From: Minisyncoccales bacterium
GTDB lineage: Bacteria > Patescibacteriota > Minisyncoccia > Minisyncoccales > JAGMDC01
Length of the DNA stretch: 64,000 bases
Assembly: GCA_049642725.1 (NCBI GenBank)
Contig: JBARPC010000016.1
Location: 14,838-78,837, forward strand
Direction of reading: 5' to 3'
Part shown: one piece after another, positions 2,402 to 19,443 of the stretch
Numbering within the stretch: the stretch's first letter is position 1
Layout of the letters: each line of letters opens with the position of its first letter
Made by a program: the position numbers and the translations under genes
Notes under the pieces: generated by a model
What the model was told of the DNA's origin: nothing
The model's input: only the letters and a program-made list of their open reading frames with translations
Database searches by the model: none

Positions 2402-3285
2402 TATTGTAGTTCTAGAGAATTTTCTACTACATAGATAGAATCGCCTTTTTCTACTATTCCATCTGCAGTATAGCTAATCAAAGTACCTGCTTCTCCGCTG
2501 ATGCTAACAGTTAAGCTTTTATTATTATATCTCCTATCGCGATGAATACAAAACATAGTATCAGGATTATTTAGCCAATGAGTATGAATATGAATCAGTT
2601 GATCATCAGTTCCTACTGTAACCGTTCCCTCCCAATCAAATTGTCCTCCTATTATAAAATCACTAATTTTTATGCTTTCAACAGTAGCAGGGTCGCTAAA
2701 AGTTAAAGTTATTATTTCATTAATCGTATCTATATTTCTATCGTAAACAAAATGAATATGCCGCGAATCAGTAATACGGGTGCCTAAAAGAGGGACAGCT
2801 GTTCCTTGAATACTTGCTTCTCCCGATGAAGCTATTACTATAACCCTAAACTGATTAGGATCTTTTTTCAGTTCAAGTTTGACAGTGCCAAATTCAGAAG
2901 TAGTGCCGCTGATTCTATCAAAAATTATTTCTGTACCGCCTCCATTAAAAGATATGTTTGAAATTTCTATTCTAGAAGAAAAATCATACCTTTCATTATT
3001 AGAATCCAAGGCATCATAAACATTTCCCTTGAATAAAACTATTTTATCTTGTTCAAAATGGACTCCGTATTCAGAAGCGCCCTCTGAACTCAAAGTTTTT
3101 GACTGTGATAATCTTAAAGCGCTAAGAATTTTCTCTGAGCTTGTGTTTAATTCGCTATGAGAACGAAAAGAAGAATAAACGTTTGCTGTTATTGCGCACA
3201 GAATAATAATAACAGCTATAATCACCAAAACCTCTATTAAGGTAAAACTCTTACATTTTTTGAAAATTGGAAATTGGAATTTCAT
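2401..3285 (-). CDS. pseudopilin, GspH/FimT-like size class
   Basis: KCKSFTLIEVLVIIAVIIILCAI is a prepilin-like motif with Glu5. Located immediately downstream of pilC. Confidence 0.6.
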   Translation of the reverse strand: MKFQFPIFKKCKSFTLIEVLVIIAVIIILCAITANVYSSFRSHSELNTSSEKILSALRLSQSKTLSSEGASEYGVHFEQDKIVLFKGNVYDALDSNNERYDFSSRIEISNISFNGGGTEIIFDRISGTTSEFGTVKLELKKDPNQFRVIVIASSGEASIQGTAVPLLGTRITDSRHIHFVYDRNIDTINEIITLTFSDPATVESIKISDFIIGGQFDWEGTVTVGTDDQLIHIHTHWLNNPDTMFCIHRDRRYNNKSLTVSISGEAGTLISYTADGIVEKGDSIYVVENSLELQ

Positions 3286-15029: not shown

Positions 15030-15389
15030 TTAGACAATGCTTTCATAATGCTGAATACGGTTTAATTTATGGCTTTGGTCTAAAACTACGCAAACAGCGT
15101 CTATGCGACATTGTCCTTTCCATCTTTTTCTGGCGCTGTAAGCATTAGCGCTTCTTACTAATTTTCTGATTTTCTCTTTATTAATGGTTTCTTCGGGAGA
15201 ACCAAACTTTTCACTGGTTTTTGTTCTTACTTCTACAAAAACAAGAACATCATTTTTTTTAGCAATTAAATCAATCTCTGAATATCTGGTTTGGCAGTTC
15301 TGTTCCATTATATTATAATCCTTGTCTTCTAAATATTCTTTAGCAATCTCTTCTCCTATCCGCCCTATTTGAAGATTATGCTCTGTCAT
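15030..15389 (-). CDS. yraN: YraN family (UPF0102) endonuclease-like protein
   Basis: GRIGEEIAKEYLEDKDYNIMEQN...SEIDLIAKK...LVFVEVRTKT is the YraN pattern. Start moved to the internal Met (MTEHN) to remove a long overlap with comM. Confidence 0.75.
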   Translation of the reverse strand: MTEHNLQIGRIGEEIAKEYLEDKDYNIMEQNCQTRYSEIDLIAKKNDVLVFVEVRTKTSEKFGSPEETINKEKIRKLVRSANAYSARKRWKGQCRIDAVCVVLDQSHKLNRIQHYESIV

Positions 15390-16914
15390 ATATCTTTGGC
15401 GGTAAAGCATATTGCAAGGCCTCTGCCATATGGCTTGCCTGAATATCCTGAGAATTTTCCAAATCAGCAATAGTTCTGGCTGTTTTAATCATTTTGTAAT
15501 AAGAACGGGCAGAAATTTGAAGCATTATTCCAGCCTGATGCAGTATTTTTTCCACTTCTCCTGATAAAGCACAGAATTTTTTTATCTGCTTGTTTTTCAT
15601 TTCAGAATTAGTGTAAACACTTTCACCCTGAAATCTTTGCTCCTGAATTTTTCTTGCCTTTTCCACTCTCTTTCTTATATCTTCTGATGTTTCAAGATTC
15701 GGTTTGTCTTGGGAAAGCTCTTCAATATCAACTGCTGGAACCTCAATATAAATATCAATTCTATCTAAAATTGGGCCTGATATCCGTTTTTTGTACTTTA
15801 AAATTTCTCGAGGGCTGCAAATGCAGGCCTTTTTCGGATGGTTTAAATATCCGCAAGGGCAGGAGTTACTAGATGCAACCAGCATAAACTCAGCAGGATA
15901 ACTCACTCTTGCTTTAGAACGAGCAATAGAAACTACTCCATCTTCTAACGGCTGCCTTAAGGCCTCTAATACAGAACGTGGAAATTCATTAAATTCGTCT
16001 AAAAACAATACTCCGCGATGAGCTAAGCTTATTTCTCCAGGACTGGGATTACTTCCGCCTCCGATAAGACCAACCTGCGAAATAGTGTGATGAGGCGAAC
16101 GAAATGGCGGCATTCTTACCAAAGAACCTTGAGCAGGAATATTACCAGTGACAGAATATATTTTTGTCACTTCTAATGACTCTGGATTTTGAAGAGGCGG
16201 TAAAACTCCTGGCAAAGCCCGGGCAAGCATTGTTTTCCCAGCCCCAGGACTGCCAACCATAAAAATATTATGGCCGCCGGCAGCAGCAATTTCCACTGCC
16301 CGCTTTGCCTGCTCCTGTCCTAAAATCTCTGACATATCAAAATCAACTCTATGCTCATCTAATCCAAAACAAACAGAATTATTATACTTTGCCGGCTCTA
16401 AAAGTTTTTTGTTAAGTAAATGAGCTAAAAGCTGGGACAAGGTTTCCACAGGATAAACTTTAATTTCTGGAACAATGGCTGCCTCATTGGCTGATGCTTT
16501 AGGAATAAAAATTTGCTTAAACCCTGCCTCTTTGGCAAAAAGAGCTAAAAGCAATGCTCCTCTGGTATGCCTTAAATTCCCGTCCAAAGAGAGTTCGCCA
16601 AAGAAAAGGGATTTTTCTGAAACAGGAAAACCAATTGTTGCACAAAGAATACCTATTGCAATTGGCAAATCATAAAATGAGCCCTCCTTGGGAATATCAG
16701 CCGGAGCCAAATTAACGGTGATTTTTCTGGCCGGAAAATCAATATTTGAATTTATAATAGCTGTCCTCACTCTTTCCTTGCTTTCATCAACTGCCTTGCT
16801 CGGCAAACCGACAATGTCAAAACCAGGCAATCCCCTGCTTGCTATATTTATTTCCACATCCACCGCTATTGTCTTTAATCCTATATTCAATGCTGACCCT
16901 ATTTTAATTAGCAT
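15376..16914 (-). CDS. comM: Mg-chelatase-like AAA ATPase ComM/YifB
   Basis: N-terminal Lon-like fold (GLPGFDIVGLP...), Walker A GSPGAGKTMLA, LFLDEFNEF, C-terminal ChlI/ComM tail. Confidence 0.9.
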   Translation of the reverse strand: MLIKIGSALNIGLKTIAVDVEINIASRGLPGFDIVGLPSKAVDESKERVRTAIINSNIDFPARKITVNLAPADIPKEGSFYDLPIAIGILCATIGFPVSEKSLFFGELSLDGNLRHTRGALLLALFAKEAGFKQIFIPKASANEAAIVPEIKVYPVETLSQLLAHLLNKKLLEPAKYNNSVCFGLDEHRVDFDMSEILGQEQAKRAVEIAAAGGHNIFMVGSPGAGKTMLARALPGVLPPLQNPESLEVTKIYSVTGNIPAQGSLVRMPPFRSPHHTISQVGLIGGGSNPSPGEISLAHRGVLFLDEFNEFPRSVLEALRQPLEDGVVSIARSKARVSYPAEFMLVASSNSCPCGYLNHPKKACICSPREILKYKKRISGPILDRIDIYIEVPAVDIEELSQDKPNLETSEDIRKRVEKARKIQEQRFQGESVYTNSEMKNKQIKKFCALSGEVEKILHQAGIMLQISARSYYKMIKTARTIADLENSQDIQASHMAEALQYALPPKIYDRA

Positions 16915-16937
16915 AATACTAAAATTTCTAATTTTTA

Positions 16938-16946
16938 TGGTATAAT
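16938..16946 (+). promoter_or_regulatory. extended -10 promoter (TGGTATAAT) for the downstream small RNA
   Basis: TG-G-TATAAT at 16938..16946. It lies 7-12 nt upstream of the start of the paired region. Confidence 0.5.
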
Positions 16947-16953
16947 TTTAATT

Positions 16954-17030
16954 GTGGTGGGGATGGCGTAGTGCGAAGTCGGGCTTATCATCCATGGCCT
17001 TCGGGGTGCAAATCCCCGCATCTCCACTAC
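16954..17030 (+). ncRNA. tRNA-like structured RNA (alanine-type acceptor stem and T-arm, non-canonical core)
   Basis: 5' GGGGATG (16959..16965) pairs with CATCTCC (17019..17025), including G3:U70. A17026 is at the discriminator position. The adjacent hairpin is CGGGG-TGCAAAT-CCCCG. The helix extends to 12 bp (16954..16965 / 17019..17030), with two G:U pairs that would be A:C on the other strand. I could not fold a D or anticodon arm. Confidence 0.4.
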
Positions 17031-17037
17031 CTTAAAA

Positions 17038-17051
17038 TTATCCACAGTTTC
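17038..17051 (+). promoter_or_regulatory. perfect DnaA box TTATCCACA within the 14-mer TTATCCACAGTTTC, 10 nt upstream of a -35
   Basis: Exact consensus 9-mer at 17038..17046. The identical 14-mer recurs on the minus strand at 32785..32798. Confidence 0.4.
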
Positions 17052-17056
17052 TTCTA

Positions 17057-17084
17057 TTGACAAAATGTTTTGATTTGCTATACT
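17057..17084 (+). promoter_or_regulatory. near-consensus promoter TTGACA-16 nt-TGcTATACT
   Basis: TTGACA 17057..17062 and TATACT 17079..17084, preceded by TG (extended -10). Confidence 0.5.
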
Positions 17085-17090
17085 TATATT

Positions 17091-17157
17091 GGATGATAGG
17101 CCTGGATCTCGTATTACGTTAAGATCAGCGAAAAATTCTGCGAAAGCAGGATTTTTT
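17091..17157 (+). ncRNA. possible short transcript between promoter and terminator, converging on the dprA 3' end
   Basis: Defined only by the flanking promoter and terminator. Contains hairpin GATCT-N12-AGATC. No coding potential. Confidence 0.25.
17134..17157. terminator. bidirectional rho-independent terminator (dprA 3' end / plus-strand RNA)
   Basis: AATTCTGC-GAAA-GCAGGATT followed by TTTTGTTT. On the minus strand the same stem is followed by TTTTT right after the dprA stop. Confidence 0.6.
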
Positions 17158-17166
17158 GTTTGAAAA

Positions 17167-18108
17167 TTATTTATCATCAACATAATATTTATTTCCTTGT
17201 TTGGAAACAATGCCATGGATTTGCATTAAAGAAAGAACAGTGCCTAATTTACTGACTGGAACATTTAAACTTCTGGAAATAGCATCAATTTCCAATGGCT
17301 CTCTCTGTAAATAAGCGATTATTTTCTCTTCAAGCGGAGAAAATGAACTTTTCAAATCAAAGGGTTTGGGCTCGCCTCGCTGAAGCCATGGCGAAGCGGG
17401 CGAGGTAAGCCCCGCAGGGGCGAAAAGGGGTCTTGATTTGAAAAGTTTATTTTCAGAGCTTTCACGATAAAATCTCAAAATATCCTTAGCTGAAATTGCC
17501 ATCTCTGCTCCATCCTTAATAAGCTGTAATGTGCCTTTTGAATTTTCACTTGTTATTGGCCCAGGCACAGCAAAAAGTTTTCGTTTATATTTATTGGCAT
17601 ATCCCGCAGTAATTAAAGAACCGCTTTTTTCTCCTGCCTCTATTACTAAACAAGCTTTAGACAAGCCGGCAATAATCCTGTTTCTTTTTGGATAAGTCCA
17701 AAAAGCTGGGGCTAAATCTTTTTCAAATTCAGAAATAATCAAGCAGTTATTATTTAAAATTTCAAAGTACAAATCTTTTTGATATTCTGGATGAATAATG
17801 TCTATTCCACAGGGCATTACTGCGATTGTCCTGCCGCCGGCCATTAAAGCAGCTTTGTGAGAAACAGCATCTATTCCATACATAAAGCCAGAAACAATAG
17901 TAATGCCAGCCATAGCAATTTCTGTAATAAATCTTTCAACAACCTGTTTACCATAAGTTGTCATTCTTCTGGAGCCGACAACTGCCAAGCAGTTTTCAAA
18001 AATTTCTGAATCCCATTTTCCTTTATGATACAGCCATTTCGGCGCATCGCTTACTTCTTTTAATAATCTTGGATATACTTTATCTTGTTTTGCAACAACA
18101 CCATTCAT
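17167..18108 (-). CDS. dprA: DNA processing protein DprA (Smf)
   Basis: VVGSRRMTTYGKQV...GITIVSGFMYGIDAVSHKAAL...GRTIAVMPCGID is the DprA Rossmann core. C-terminal winged-helix-like tail. Confidence 0.9.
   Translation of the reverse strand: MNGVVAKQDKVYPRLLKEVSDAPKWLYHKGKWDSEIFENCLAVVGSRRMTTYGKQVVERFITEIAMAGITIVSGFMYGIDAVSHKAALMAGGRTIAVMPCGIDIIHPEYQKDLYFEILNNNCLIISEFEKDLAPAFWTYPKRNRIIAGLSKACLVIEAGEKSGSLITAGYANKYKRKLFAVPGPITSENSKGTLQLIKDGAEMAISAKDILRFYRESSENKLFKSRPLFAPAGLTSPASPWLQRGEPKPFDLKSSFSPLEEKIIAYLQREPLEIDAISRSLNVPVSKLGTVLSLMQIHGIVSKQGNKYYVDDK
17368..17430. repeat. GC-rich double-hairpin patch inside the dprA linker
   Basis: CTCGCC/GGCGAG plus TCGC/GCGA stems, then GCCCC-GCA-GGGGC. Encodes RPLFAPAGLTSPASPWLQRGEPKPF. 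Strongly GC-rich against AT-rich flanks. Confidence 0.6.
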
Positions 18109-18132: not shown

Positions 18133-19443
18133 TCATTTTTTCGTTATTCCTGCTTCGGATTTAGTTATTATATCTTGGTGATTGGTATTTCTAAAAGGTG
18201 AAATCACTTCATAAAAAGGAATAAAATGAATTCTTGTTTTATTAAGCTTAATCTCTTTTTTAAGCCCCAAATTGACTAAAAAAGCGTTCCGGGGTTGATA
18301 TTTCAGGATAAAATTTTTTAAGGAACGGGGAACTTCCGGTTCTTTTAATTCTTGACATTTTACTTCAATTGGGATAATTTCCTTTCCTGTATCAACTATA
18401 AAATCAACTTCGGCTCCATCTTTGGTCCGCCAAAAATGAATTCTTGACGGACTGTAATAAATTTTCTCTTTAAGAATATTAAAAATAAAATTTTCAAAAA
18501 GGAAACCAAGATTTTGCGCAATAGTTACATTGCCAAACTCTCCCAGCGAATAATTTTTTAGGCCTAAATCATTGAAATAGAAAATCGGGGTCTTGGTGAT
18601 TTCCTTGCGCACATTTTTGAAATAAGGAACCAGTTTTTCTAAGATAAATGTTTTTTGCAGATACCAAAGATAATTCTTAACTGTTTTTACTGAAATTCCC
18701 AAAGTAGAAGAAAGTTCAGAGAAATTTACTAAATTTCCTATTTGGGATGCCATTATTCTAACTAAATTGGTGAACTCTTCTGTTTTTTGAACCCCTAAAA
18801 AATAAGAAATATCCTTTTCTAAGTAGCTTTGATAAATCTCATCTATAAACTTCTTTTTTTCTTCTAACCTATCCTCTAAAACCACTCTCGGATAGCCGCC
18901 AAAATTAAGATACTCTTCAAAAAGTTCTCTTGTTTTTTCTTTGTCAATTTCAAAAAAATCAGAAAGTTTTTTTTCATATTTATAGTTGGTCCTAAAATTA
19001 ACGAATTCTTCAAAAGATAAAACATTGAGATTAAAAATTCTTTTTCTGCCAACCAATGATTCCTGAATTTTTCCTTTTAACTCAACACTGCCTGAACCGG
19101 AAACAATAAATTTATAAGGAAGATCCATATCATAAATTCCTTTCAAGAAAACGCCGGCGTTTTCTTTTCTTTGAATTTCATCAATAAAAACATATCCCTT
19201 TTCCTTTCCTATTTCTAATTGAATTTTTTTTATTAGTTTTTCCTGAGAAACGACAAATTGCTTATCTCTTTCAATATCAAGATTTAAAAAAATGGTTTTT
19301 TTTCTCTTTCCTTCCAAATGTTCTTTTAAGAAAAGCATCAGAGTAGTTTTCCCTGCTTGTCTGGGGCCAATAATAAAACTAATTTCTTTTTTAGTAAGAT
19401 GTAATTTTAATTGTTCAAATAGAACTCTTTTTATTTTTTTCAT
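18133..19443 (-). CDS. AAA ATPase with DUF4143-type C-terminal domain (paralogue A)
   Basis: Walker A GPRQAGKTTLM, Walker B VFIDEIQ, C-terminal ...RTKDGAEVDFIV... pattern of the AAA_14/DUF4143 family. Confidence 0.8.
   Translation of the reverse strand: MKKIKRVLFEQLKLHLTKKEISFIIGPRQAGKTTLMLFLKEHLEGKRKKTIFLNLDIERDKQFVVSQEKLIKKIQLEIGKEKGYVFIDEIQRKENAGVFLKGIYDMDLPYKFIVSGSGSVELKGKIQESLVGRKRIFNLNVLSFEEFVNFRTNYKYEKKLSDFFEIDKEKTRELFEEYLNFGGYPRVVLEDRLEEKKKFIDEIYQSYLEKDISYFLGVQKTEEFTNLVRIMASQIGNLVNFSELSSTLGISVKTVKNYLWYLQKTFILEKLVPYFKNVRKEITKTPIFYFNDLGLKNYSLGEFGNVTIAQNLGFLFENFIFNILKEKIYYSPSRIHFWRTKDGAEVDFIVDTGKEIIPIEVKCQELKEPEVPRSLKNFILKYQPRNAFLVNLGLKKEIKLNKTRIHFIPFYEVISPFRNTNHQDIITKSEAGITKK

Follow-up and report, generated by a model that had tools for sequence, protein, structure and literature searches.

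Transfer-messenger RNAs (tmRNAs) without a coding sequence (CDS) are known from mitochondria (jakobid and oomycete), two plastids (Mallomonadaceae), the phage DS6A, Nasuia and the Patescibacteria member '9FT-COMBO-53-11 sp001772805' (PMC11915505, PMC4131195). Among Patescibacteria, standard tmRNA is found in 78% of 6,765 genomes, and three 'Standard NoCDS' instances are recorded, all from one species (PMC11915505). The role of a tRNA-like domain (TLD) carrying no message is a long-standing puzzle, and the sole functional clue is inhibition of normal tmRNA: a TLD-only molecule is reported to inhibit tmRNA strongly, perhaps through titration of SmpB (PMC4131195; PMC11915505). Here we describe a small RNA unit in a stretch of 64,000 nt from contig JBARPC010000016.1 (the window, in whose coordinates all positions are given), comprising the gene for a tRNA-like RNA, RNA 1, and, downstream on the same strand, the gene for a second short RNA, RNA 2, that is complementary to part of it. 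Judged from its sequence, RNA 1 is most aptly called a CDS-less mini-tmRNA-like alanine acceptor; that it belongs to the curated tmRNA family is not demonstrable. The reading that we put foremost, that this acceptor is held under a dedicated antisense RNA off-switch, has in our judgement an even chance of being right.

RNA 1 resembles the known CDS-less tmRNAs in most of its parts. Like them it combines an acceptor stem carrying G3:U70 and A73 with an adjoining T-arm, has no D stem, carries a hairpin in place of tmRNA helix P2, lacks a tag frame and is of tRNA size. The tRNA-like domain of tmRNA is represented by a 7-bp acceptor stem with G3:U70, a discriminator A and an abutting T-arm, and the CDS-less architecture by an acceptor, an unpaired D-loop analogue, one closed hairpin and the T-arm, with nothing more. 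The tmRNA pseudoknot body (PK1–PK4) is absent, only 36 nt lying between the acceptor 5' strand and the T-arm. RNA 1 differs from the known CDS-less tmRNAs in two respects: it falls far below the RF00023 cut-off, with a divergent D-loop-like stretch and divergent bases before the T-stem, and it has a dedicated, separately promoted antisense RNA, whereas none is mentioned for any CDS-less tmRNA in PMC11915505 or PMC4131195. The features of the unit are as follows.

16938–16946, plus strand: P1, the extended −10 promoter TGGTATAAT, predicted to drive RNA 1.
16954–16958, plus strand: 5' leader GUGGU, which pairs with the trailer at 17026–17030 and begins approximately at the predicted transcription start.
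16959–17026, plus strand: RNA 1 from G1 to the discriminator A73, a tRNA-like RNA with tmRNA-type acceptor and T-arm, without D arm, anticodon arm or tag open reading frame (ORF).
16959–16965, plus strand: acceptor 5' strand GGGGAUG, including G3; G1, G2 and G3 are invariant and positions 4–7 covary with 66–69.
16964–16976, plus strand: helix B arm of RNA 1 (acceptor nucleotides 6–7 and the D-loop-like stretch GCGUAGUGCGA), pairing with RNA 2 at 17109–17121.
16975–17001, plus strand: hairpin internal to RNA 1, 16975–16983 with 16992–17001, loop CUUAUCAU, in the place of the tmRNA H2a helix.
16979–16992, plus strand: helix A arm of RNA 1, pairing with RNA 2 at 17092–17105.
17002–17018, plus strand: T-arm CGGGG-UGCAAAU-CCCCG, directly abutting the acceptor 3' strand and containing the invariant GGGTGCAAWTCCC.
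17019–17030, plus strand: acceptor 3' strand CAUCUCC (17019–17025), A73 at 17026, C74 and the trailer; UCCAC (U70 to C74) is invariant and no CCA is encoded.
17057–17084, plus strand: P2, the RNA 2 promoter, TTGACA-16 nt-TGcTATACT, with TTGACA at 17057–17062; 11 of 12 consensus matches plus TG.
17091 to about 17162, plus strand: RNA 2, about 70 nt between predicted ends, with a 5' arm of 31 nt, an A-rich linker and a terminator.
17092–17121, plus strand: arm 2, in RNA 2; 17092–17105 pairs with 16979–16992 (helix A) and 17109–17121 with 16964–16976 (helix B), with an internal loop at 17106–17108.
17131–17162, plus strand: intrinsic terminator, consisting of an A-run, UUCUGC-GAAA-GCAGGA and a U-run.

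The reality of RNA 1 rests on comparative data, because its fold as a single sequence is statistically unremarkable (z = −1.14 for 79 nt) and would be unconvincing alone. Homologues were sought by regular expression, blastn and a covariance model, R1, starting from a comM-anchored set of loci from 80 species; four alignments (A1–A4) were built and base-pair counts were made on A4. The comM-anchored loci place the window within Patescibacteria, and a ComM identical to its own is annotated from a Minisyncoccales MAG; the host occurs in SRR29492071/72. Homologues of RNA 1 occur in seven other Patescibacteria contigs at about 70% identity. Those of the whole unit are L056, L060, L072 and L039, found by blastn, together with L092, L188 and the more distant L156, found by a motif scan of metagenomes. 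L039 and L072 derive from MAGs (CAYZHR01, CAYNHB01), whereas L092, L156 and L188 are unbinned contigs; JACOYH01 and MHMD01 also carry the unit. The covariance model found no copies in the 80 comM loci additional to the blastn set, and a custom scan of all comM loci for a G3:U70 acceptor with T-arm returned the known copies and AT-rich noise only. A crude motif scan of the window also matches three AT-rich junk sites.

Across this family the helices are maintained by compensatory change. The acceptor stem with its leader and trailer is 95.8% paired, 7 of its 12 pairs having changed on both sides (the leader–trailer pair 5:80, for example, occurs as UA, AU, CG and GC); the pairs G1:C72, G2:C71 and G3:U70 never vary, nor do A73 and C74. 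Pairing reaches 100% in the T-arm (2 of 5 pairs changed on both sides) and 88.9% in the terminator (2 of 6), whose GAAA loop becomes UUCG in L072. The two helices predicted between RNA 1 and RNA 2 show 100% pairing and 8 of 14 pairs changed on both sides in helix A, and 93.8% and 8 of 13 in helix B. Over all helices 26 of 48 pairs have changed on both sides, against 2–9 in slid controls, and 0 of 500 shuffles reach that number. G.U pairs fill 29 cells of the alignment on the plus strand and 3 on the minus strand, and a U.G pair of the terminator would be a C-A mismatch on the minus strand; these strand-specific wobble pairs imply that RNA 1 and RNA 2 are both plus-strand transcripts. We regard the two adjacent RNA genes, with their promoters and terminator and with the fold of RNA 1, as established at the level of sequence comparison.

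Much of what the initial annotation had drawn from the single sequence is borne out by these data. It had proposed a non-canonical tRNA-like RNA on the plus strand with its own promoter, and the RNA proves to be conserved and covarying, with the P1 −10 element kept; its choice of strand, made from wobble pairs, agrees with the G.U count. The identity nucleotides that it had recognised for alanyl-tRNA synthetase (AlaRS), G3:U70 and A73, are present and invariant, as is the wider set with G1 and G2, the T-arm does abut the acceptor stem directly, and the proposed extension of the helix to 12 bp by leader and trailer covaries. Comparison with related genomes and a search for known families, both of which it had suggested, gave covariation in all helices and no canonical family from ARAGORN or Rfam. 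Its statement that the middle 36 nt cannot be folded is right as regards D and anticodon arms; these nucleotides do, however, hold an internal hairpin and the predicted pairing site for RNA 2. The partner RNA, this hairpin and the insertion nature of the unit had gone unseen.

The same comparisons bear on whether the element might be a functionless relic, either an integration scar or a pseudogene of tRNA-Ala or tmRNA in decay; the complementarity downstream would then be what is left of a mobile element's inverted repeat. In favour of this, neither ARAGORN nor Rfam makes a call here, and the unit is an insertion between direct repeats. Compensatory changes in all five helices across genera, the wobble bias, and the conservation of two promoters and a terminator are not what neutral decay would maintain, and identity of about 70% among homologues argues against recent copies. 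The covariation effectively refutes this explanation, which we consider to have almost no chance of being correct. The integration scar that the initial annotation had offered as one option is likewise not supported: both acceptor strands, the two promoters and the terminator are conserved with covariation, so the element is not a partial copy of the 3' end of a tRNA or tmRNA.

Of the two genes, that for RNA 1 would be expressed from P1, whose TGnTA...T core is retained 11–12 nt upstream of G1 in L056, L060, L072, L092 and L188. P1 has no good −35 element, which is why a simple promoter scan did not list it. On its own, RNA 1 is predicted to fold into the acceptor stem, a 9-bp hairpin and the T-arm, this being the minimum free energy fold in five of six homologues. 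Across the family the hairpin shows 81.7% pairing and has 5 of its 9 pairs altered on both sides, and it constitutes independent evidence because its 3' strand lies largely outside the RNA 2 pairing site. RNA 1 is followed by no terminator, and the spacer between it and P2, 3–29 nt across the homologues, is just 3 nt in L060, implying that the 3' end of RNA 1 must arise by processing.

RNA 2 has a promoter of its own. Its gene begins 65 nt downstream of RNA 1, and the hexamers of P2 are conserved while the spacer sequence between them varies, TTGACA and most of the −10 element being invariant. The first paired base of arm 2 coincides with the predicted P2 start. Among the homologues compared, sequence conservation in RNA 2 is confined to the arm and the terminator, and no ORF is kept. 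Duplexes of RNA 1 with RNA 2 in the homologues have predicted energies of −42.8 to −55.3 kcal/mol. Within RNA 1 the pairing covers the unpaired D-loop-like stretch and reaches acceptor positions 6–7, and the sole lineage with C6:G67 has a matching G in RNA 2. Column 31 of the alignment covaries both with column 47, within RNA 1, and with column 157, in RNA 2. On alignment evidence this double covariation is the signature of two competing pairings, as in a strand-displacement switch, and the competing duplex can likewise be taken as established by sequence comparison.

If the pairing is real, might it be formed within one molecule rather than between two? Arms 1 and 2 could form a processing stalk in a single read-through precursor from P1, for example an RNase III site through which the transcript is matured or destroyed, P2 then being secondary. 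With no terminator between RNA 1 and RNA 2, P1 transcripts do hold both arms. Folded as one chain, the 218 nt from 16953 to 17170 are very stable (z = −5.41, with 0 of 200 shuffles as good), and 16964–16994 pair with 17091–17122. The conserved P2 hexamers around a variable spacer, and a start at the first paired base of arm 2, point instead to a separate RNA 2, and cutting a stalk within RNA 1 would destroy the conserved tRNA-like fold. We think pairing in cis alone improbable; in any case it would modify the off-switch reading more than compete with it.

A further possibility is that the duplex is itself the working form. RNA 1 and RNA 2 would then constitute a two-piece, tag-less tmRNA, in which RNA 2 supplies in trans the second strand of a long helix like tmRNA helix P2, and the particle goes into stalled ribosomes together with SmpB, giving alanine but no tag; it may even be the only tmRNA of its lineage. 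CDS-less tmRNAs and two-piece, base-paired tmRNAs are each known, the three 'Standard NoCDS' instances in Patescibacteria among the former (PMC11915505). The helices between the RNAs are the best-conserved feature of the unit and begin right after the acceptor stem, where tmRNA helix P2 lies, and the 64-kb window holds no standard tmRNA or smpB. Geometry speaks against such a particle. Arm 1 points away from the junction, and its far end is joined to the T-stem by just 9 nt, so that a duplex of about 27 bp (about 75 Å) could hardly coexist with an intact acceptor/T stack. The pairing moreover invades acceptor pairs 6–7, and the duplex must break the covarying hairpin of RNA 1 itself. RNA 2 carries its complementary region at the 5' end, whereas tmRNA topology requires the 3' end, and it has no conserved motif beyond its arm. 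Close relatives lack the unit, which would be odd for an essential rescue RNA unless they keep a standard tmRNA. We therefore consider a working two-piece particle unlikely; were it true, it would represent a fourth, independent way of splitting tmRNA.

The permuted tmRNAs of Alphaproteobacteria, some Betaproteobacteria and Cyanobacteria (RF04321, RF01849–51) provide the natural comparison for such a particle. They share with the present unit a T-loop of the form UGCAAWU and two chains with extended pairing beside the tRNA-like domain. A permuted tmRNA gene, however, has the 3' strand of the acceptor upstream of its 5' strand, a single precursor yields both pieces, and the coding piece includes a tag ORF and pseudoknots. 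The present unit has the standard gene order, an acceptor closed within RNA 1, and an RNA 2 with its own promoter and no ORF.

The likeness of RNA 1 to tmRNA is clearest in its T-loop. UGCAAAU is, on sequence comparison, of a type found mainly in tmRNAs. The motif GGGTGCAAWTCCC-N6-TCCAC occurs in at least 120 metagenome contigs; among the matches listed, at least 45 are tmRNAs by ARAGORN, many of them permuted, and at least nine more are full-length tmRNAs by Rfam, giving about 54 bona fide tmRNAs together. Most tmRNAs among the matches listed share their contig with smpB, and a minority of these matches are ordinary tRNAs in tRNA arrays. The host tRNA genes just outside the window have T-loops with UUCAA and UUCGA, not UGCAAAU. 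Formal family searches place RNA 1 less securely. ARAGORN finds no tRNA, tmRNA or tag peptide anywhere in the 64-kb window, and no Rfam family reaches its gathering score in the window. With relaxed thresholds, the tRNA family RF00005 scores 14.2 bits on RNA 1 against a cut-off of 29; on a 96-nt stretch RF04321 (tmRNA_permuted) scores 21.4 against 47, over the T-arm and 3' strand only, and RF00023, though below threshold, is the best member of the tRNA clan. L156 is alike, with a sub-threshold 14 bits for RF00023. Across the homologues, neither RNA 1 nor the spacer nor RNA 2 keeps a tag reading frame with resume codon and stop; frames such as AKAGFFV*, which runs through the terminator in the window, were considered as a tag ORF and rejected as unconserved. 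The options listed in the initial annotation included a degenerate tRNA or a tmRNA-derived element, and tmRNA-derived fits best among them, since the T-loop motif retrieves mostly tmRNAs; a mimic of the Y-RNA/YrlA type, also listed there, is not supported, as no Y-RNA family appears even at E ≤ 10 and the neighbouring genes are not rsr but encode ComM, DprA, YraN and a DUF4143 ATPase.

The metagenome matches also include a group of one-piece, tag-less mini-tmRNAs of about 70 nt, each made up of a G3:U70 acceptor, UAGAUUCGAC, a single closed hairpin, GGAC and a T-arm; CCA is encoded in some of them. They are L175:7360–7429 (minus strand), L203 and L204 (viral contigs with the same sequence), L184:467–535, L200:232–309, and further examples in L147, L097, L103, L130, L142, L168 and L171. 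L175, L184 and L200 share the T-arm motif of RNA 1 and exceed the RF00023 gathering score; ARAGORN calls none of the one-piece forms. At least one resides on a phage, as does the published DS6A RNA. When viral contigs were scanned for the motif together with TTGACA, no two-piece unit appeared; the only finds were a permuted tmRNA and a phage one-piece mini-tmRNA. In L171 (1127–1296, minus strand) a mini-tmRNA-like RNA is followed after 3 nt by TTGACA-17-TGTGATATAAT and a transcript of about 80 nt with a terminator, a layout like that of the window, with no convincing complementarity between the two RNAs there.

Could RNA 1 serve as an alanine donor outside translation? The identity nucleotides of tRNA-Ala and of the alanine minihelix (G3:U70, A73 and G2:C71) are all present and invariant in RNA 1, and the acceptor/T-stem is intact; RNA 1 differs from tRNA-Ala in having no D arm, no anticodon arm and no NGC anticodon, and its T-loop has G at position 55, unlike the host tRNAs. 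The best whole-molecule match in Rfam, mascRNA (RF01684, 21.3 bits against 42.5, sub-threshold), is also tRNA-like, with acceptor stem, T-arm and no functional anticodon, but it is a eukaryotic RNA cleaved from MALAT1, and only the generic acceptor and T-arm account for the match. An AlaRS substrate of minihelix type, bypassing decoding, could donate alanine to a reaction off the ribosome, for instance aminoacylation of the cell wall or of lipids, or Ala-tailing, and RNA 2 would tune how much of it is available; the complete set of AlaRS identity nucleotides, the intact minihelix and the missing anticodon are compatible with this. In none of the six genomic contexts, however, is an aminoacyl-transferase gene of the Fem, MprF or RqcH type linked to the unit, and the T-loop type and architecture suggest tmRNA rather than a tRNA-Ala isoacceptor. 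We judge such a donor role to be very improbable.

Taking the off-switch reading as a whole, RNA 1 would be transcribed from the extended −10 promoter P1 and would fold into the acceptor, D-loop-like stretch, hairpin and T-arm. It would probably be matured like a tRNA, by RNase P cleavage, 3' trimming after A73 and addition of CCA, because no terminator follows it and the host tRNA genes lack CCA. Genes for tRNA-Arg and tRNA-His (L216:6614–6836, about 3.5 kb beyond the start of the window) carry no encoded CCA; on this sequence evidence the host depends on post-transcriptional CCA addition, and the missing CCA in RNA 1 is therefore no argument against charging. AlaRS could charge the mature RNA 1 through G3:U70 and A73. 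RNA 2, transcribed from its own P2, would pair through its first ~30 nt with nucleotides 6–35 of RNA 1, displacing the 3' strand of the hairpin, covering the D-loop-like region and invading acceptor pairs 6–7. RNA 1 would thus be sequestered or unfolded, and the duplex of about 27 bp possibly cut by RNase III. RNA 2 should be at least equimolar to RNA 1, because every P1 transcript would include it and P2 would supply further copies. Free RNA 1 may interfere with trans-translation or replace it; since TLD-only molecules reportedly inhibit tmRNA, we would expect it to disturb the process.

Several observations weigh against this reading. The sample is small, eight sequences, with six full and two partial homologues. 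RF00023 scores only 10.4 bits on the 96-nt stretch, against a cut-off of 47, so that SmpB binding is not assured. The D-loop-like stretch of RNA 1 is only loosely similar to the UAGAUUCGAC and GGAC motifs of tmRNA: the analogue reads GUAGUGCGAAGUC in the window and AAGUGCGAC in L156, and the window has GGCCUU rather than GGAC before the T-stem, where the one-piece forms L175, L184 and L147 have both motifs in full. A search of the 64-kb window and of about 5 kb beyond its start turned up neither smpB nor a standard tmRNA gene. The RNA 1 hairpin is weaker than the helices between the RNAs, and its register is shifted in L060 and L039. RNAcofold cannot draw the acceptor stem and the RNA 2 duplex together, as they formally make a pseudoknot; the loss of the acceptor stem that it predicts is partly an artefact of the algorithm and is not used here as evidence. 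Lastly, the apparent enrichment of the unit near comM may be due in part to the comM-based collection of loci.

Type I toxin–antitoxin (TA) modules with trans-encoded antitoxins, such as tisB/istR-1 and zor/orz, offer a precedent for control by a separately encoded RNA. RNA toxins under RNA-based control make up type VIII TA, for example CreT/CreA (PMC10097628, PMC10767807). By analogy, RNA 1 and RNA 2 may form an all-RNA module of toxin–antitoxin-like or regulatory kind. As in TA modules, there are two adjacent small genes, of which the putative antidote has the stronger promoter; pairing extends over about 30 nt (covarying helices of 14 and 13 bp) with no other conserved part; and the unit is compact, patchily distributed and insertion-like. 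It differs from the known modules in that the putative toxin would be a tRNA-like decoy for SmpB or the ribosome, a new mode of action, and in that the genes are in tandem on one strand, not overlapping or divergent. Taken further, the unit would be a mobile, protein-free TA module whose toxin is a tag-less tmRNA mimic, charged with alanine and/or titrating SmpB and so blocking ribosome rescue, whose antitoxin is the cognate antisense RNA that unfolds it, and which spreads as a target-duplicating insertion of about 200–270 bp. This fuller version we put forward as a doubtful but serious possibility. If true, it would mean a new toxin mechanism, the first RNA toxin to act by tRNA or tmRNA mimicry, and would add to the small mobile elements of ultra-small bacteria a new kind; no such system would have preceded it in bacteria of the candidate phyla radiation (CPR). 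In either case the locus provides a natural genetic handle on CDS-less tmRNAs, as evolution has kept a partner RNA complementary to a mini-tmRNA, and the question of whether mini-tmRNA activity is harmful or useful becomes testable here.

That the unit is an insertion is clear from comparison with relatives lacking it. In the window the unit, about 260 bp, lies antisense between dprA and comM, where the initial annotation had located RNA 1: ComM/YifB is encoded at 15376–16914 and DprA at 17167–18108, both on the minus strand. The order dprA-comM-yraN is kept in nearly all of the 80 loci. In the relatives L206 and L207 (ComM 88% identical) and L208–L215 (73–74% identical), the unit is absent and dprA overlaps comM by 11 nt. 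The junction that is single in L206 is present twice in the window, bracketing the unit, as two direct repeats.

16907–16918, no strand assigned: left direct repeat ATTAGCATAATA, a copy of the ancestral dprA-stop/comM-start overlap that holds the comM start codon.
17176–17187, no strand assigned: right direct repeat ATCAACATAATA, 10 of 12 positions identical to the left copy, within the 3' end of dprA.

In L056, L060 and L039 the unit lies between comM and yraN, antisense, and the junction is again duplicated; in L072 the flanking repeats are of 12 nt. L156 has a 42-nt direct repeat, 98% identical, at 2978–3019 and 3171–3212, on either side of its copy of the unit; the repeat consists of the RNA 2 terminator hairpin and could be a target duplication that arose with the insertion or a remnant of a tandem copy. 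Elsewhere the unit is found beside nusA, rplJ with a GIY-YIG gene, the gene of a 23S-IVS protein, and murA with TrmB, and it has no conserved protein neighbour in the six contexts. A functional link to the competence genes was considered and rejected, as the unit also occurs beside nusA, rplJ, murA and the 23S-IVS gene and the comM loci were the search anchor.

A 93-aa ORF without Pfam match (16935–17216, minus strand) spans all of the RNA unit in antisense, and an 82-aa gene has been called publicly at the same position (L205:2393–2641). It is probably a spurious gene, because the covariation shows that the constraint is on RNA structure. Present tRNA and tmRNA finders thus overlook this class of RNA, while gene callers put a probably spurious protein gene over it.

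Immediately upstream of dprA the window carries a gene for a DUF4143/AAA_14 ATPase (18133–19443, minus strand); in the closest relative, L206, this position is held by a different, unannotated gene. A weak match to R1 in L053 (776–866, minus strand) is an unrelated small transcript unit with the same type of promoter, TTGACA-17-TGCTATACT, and the 3' end GGGAAUUUUUU; promoters of this type seem, from their sequence, to be a strong small-RNA promoter of these bacteria. Finally, several standard tmRNAs with smpB on their contig score 88–148 bits in Rfam and are missed by ARAGORN (L126:5303–5709, L096:7494–7849, L094:751–1138, L160, L182, L192, L193, L157 and L106), and several of these ARAGORN-missed tmRNAs, of low GC content, encode unusually long tags, such as ANFISKAKATFAQAFAGFSPALA in L126.

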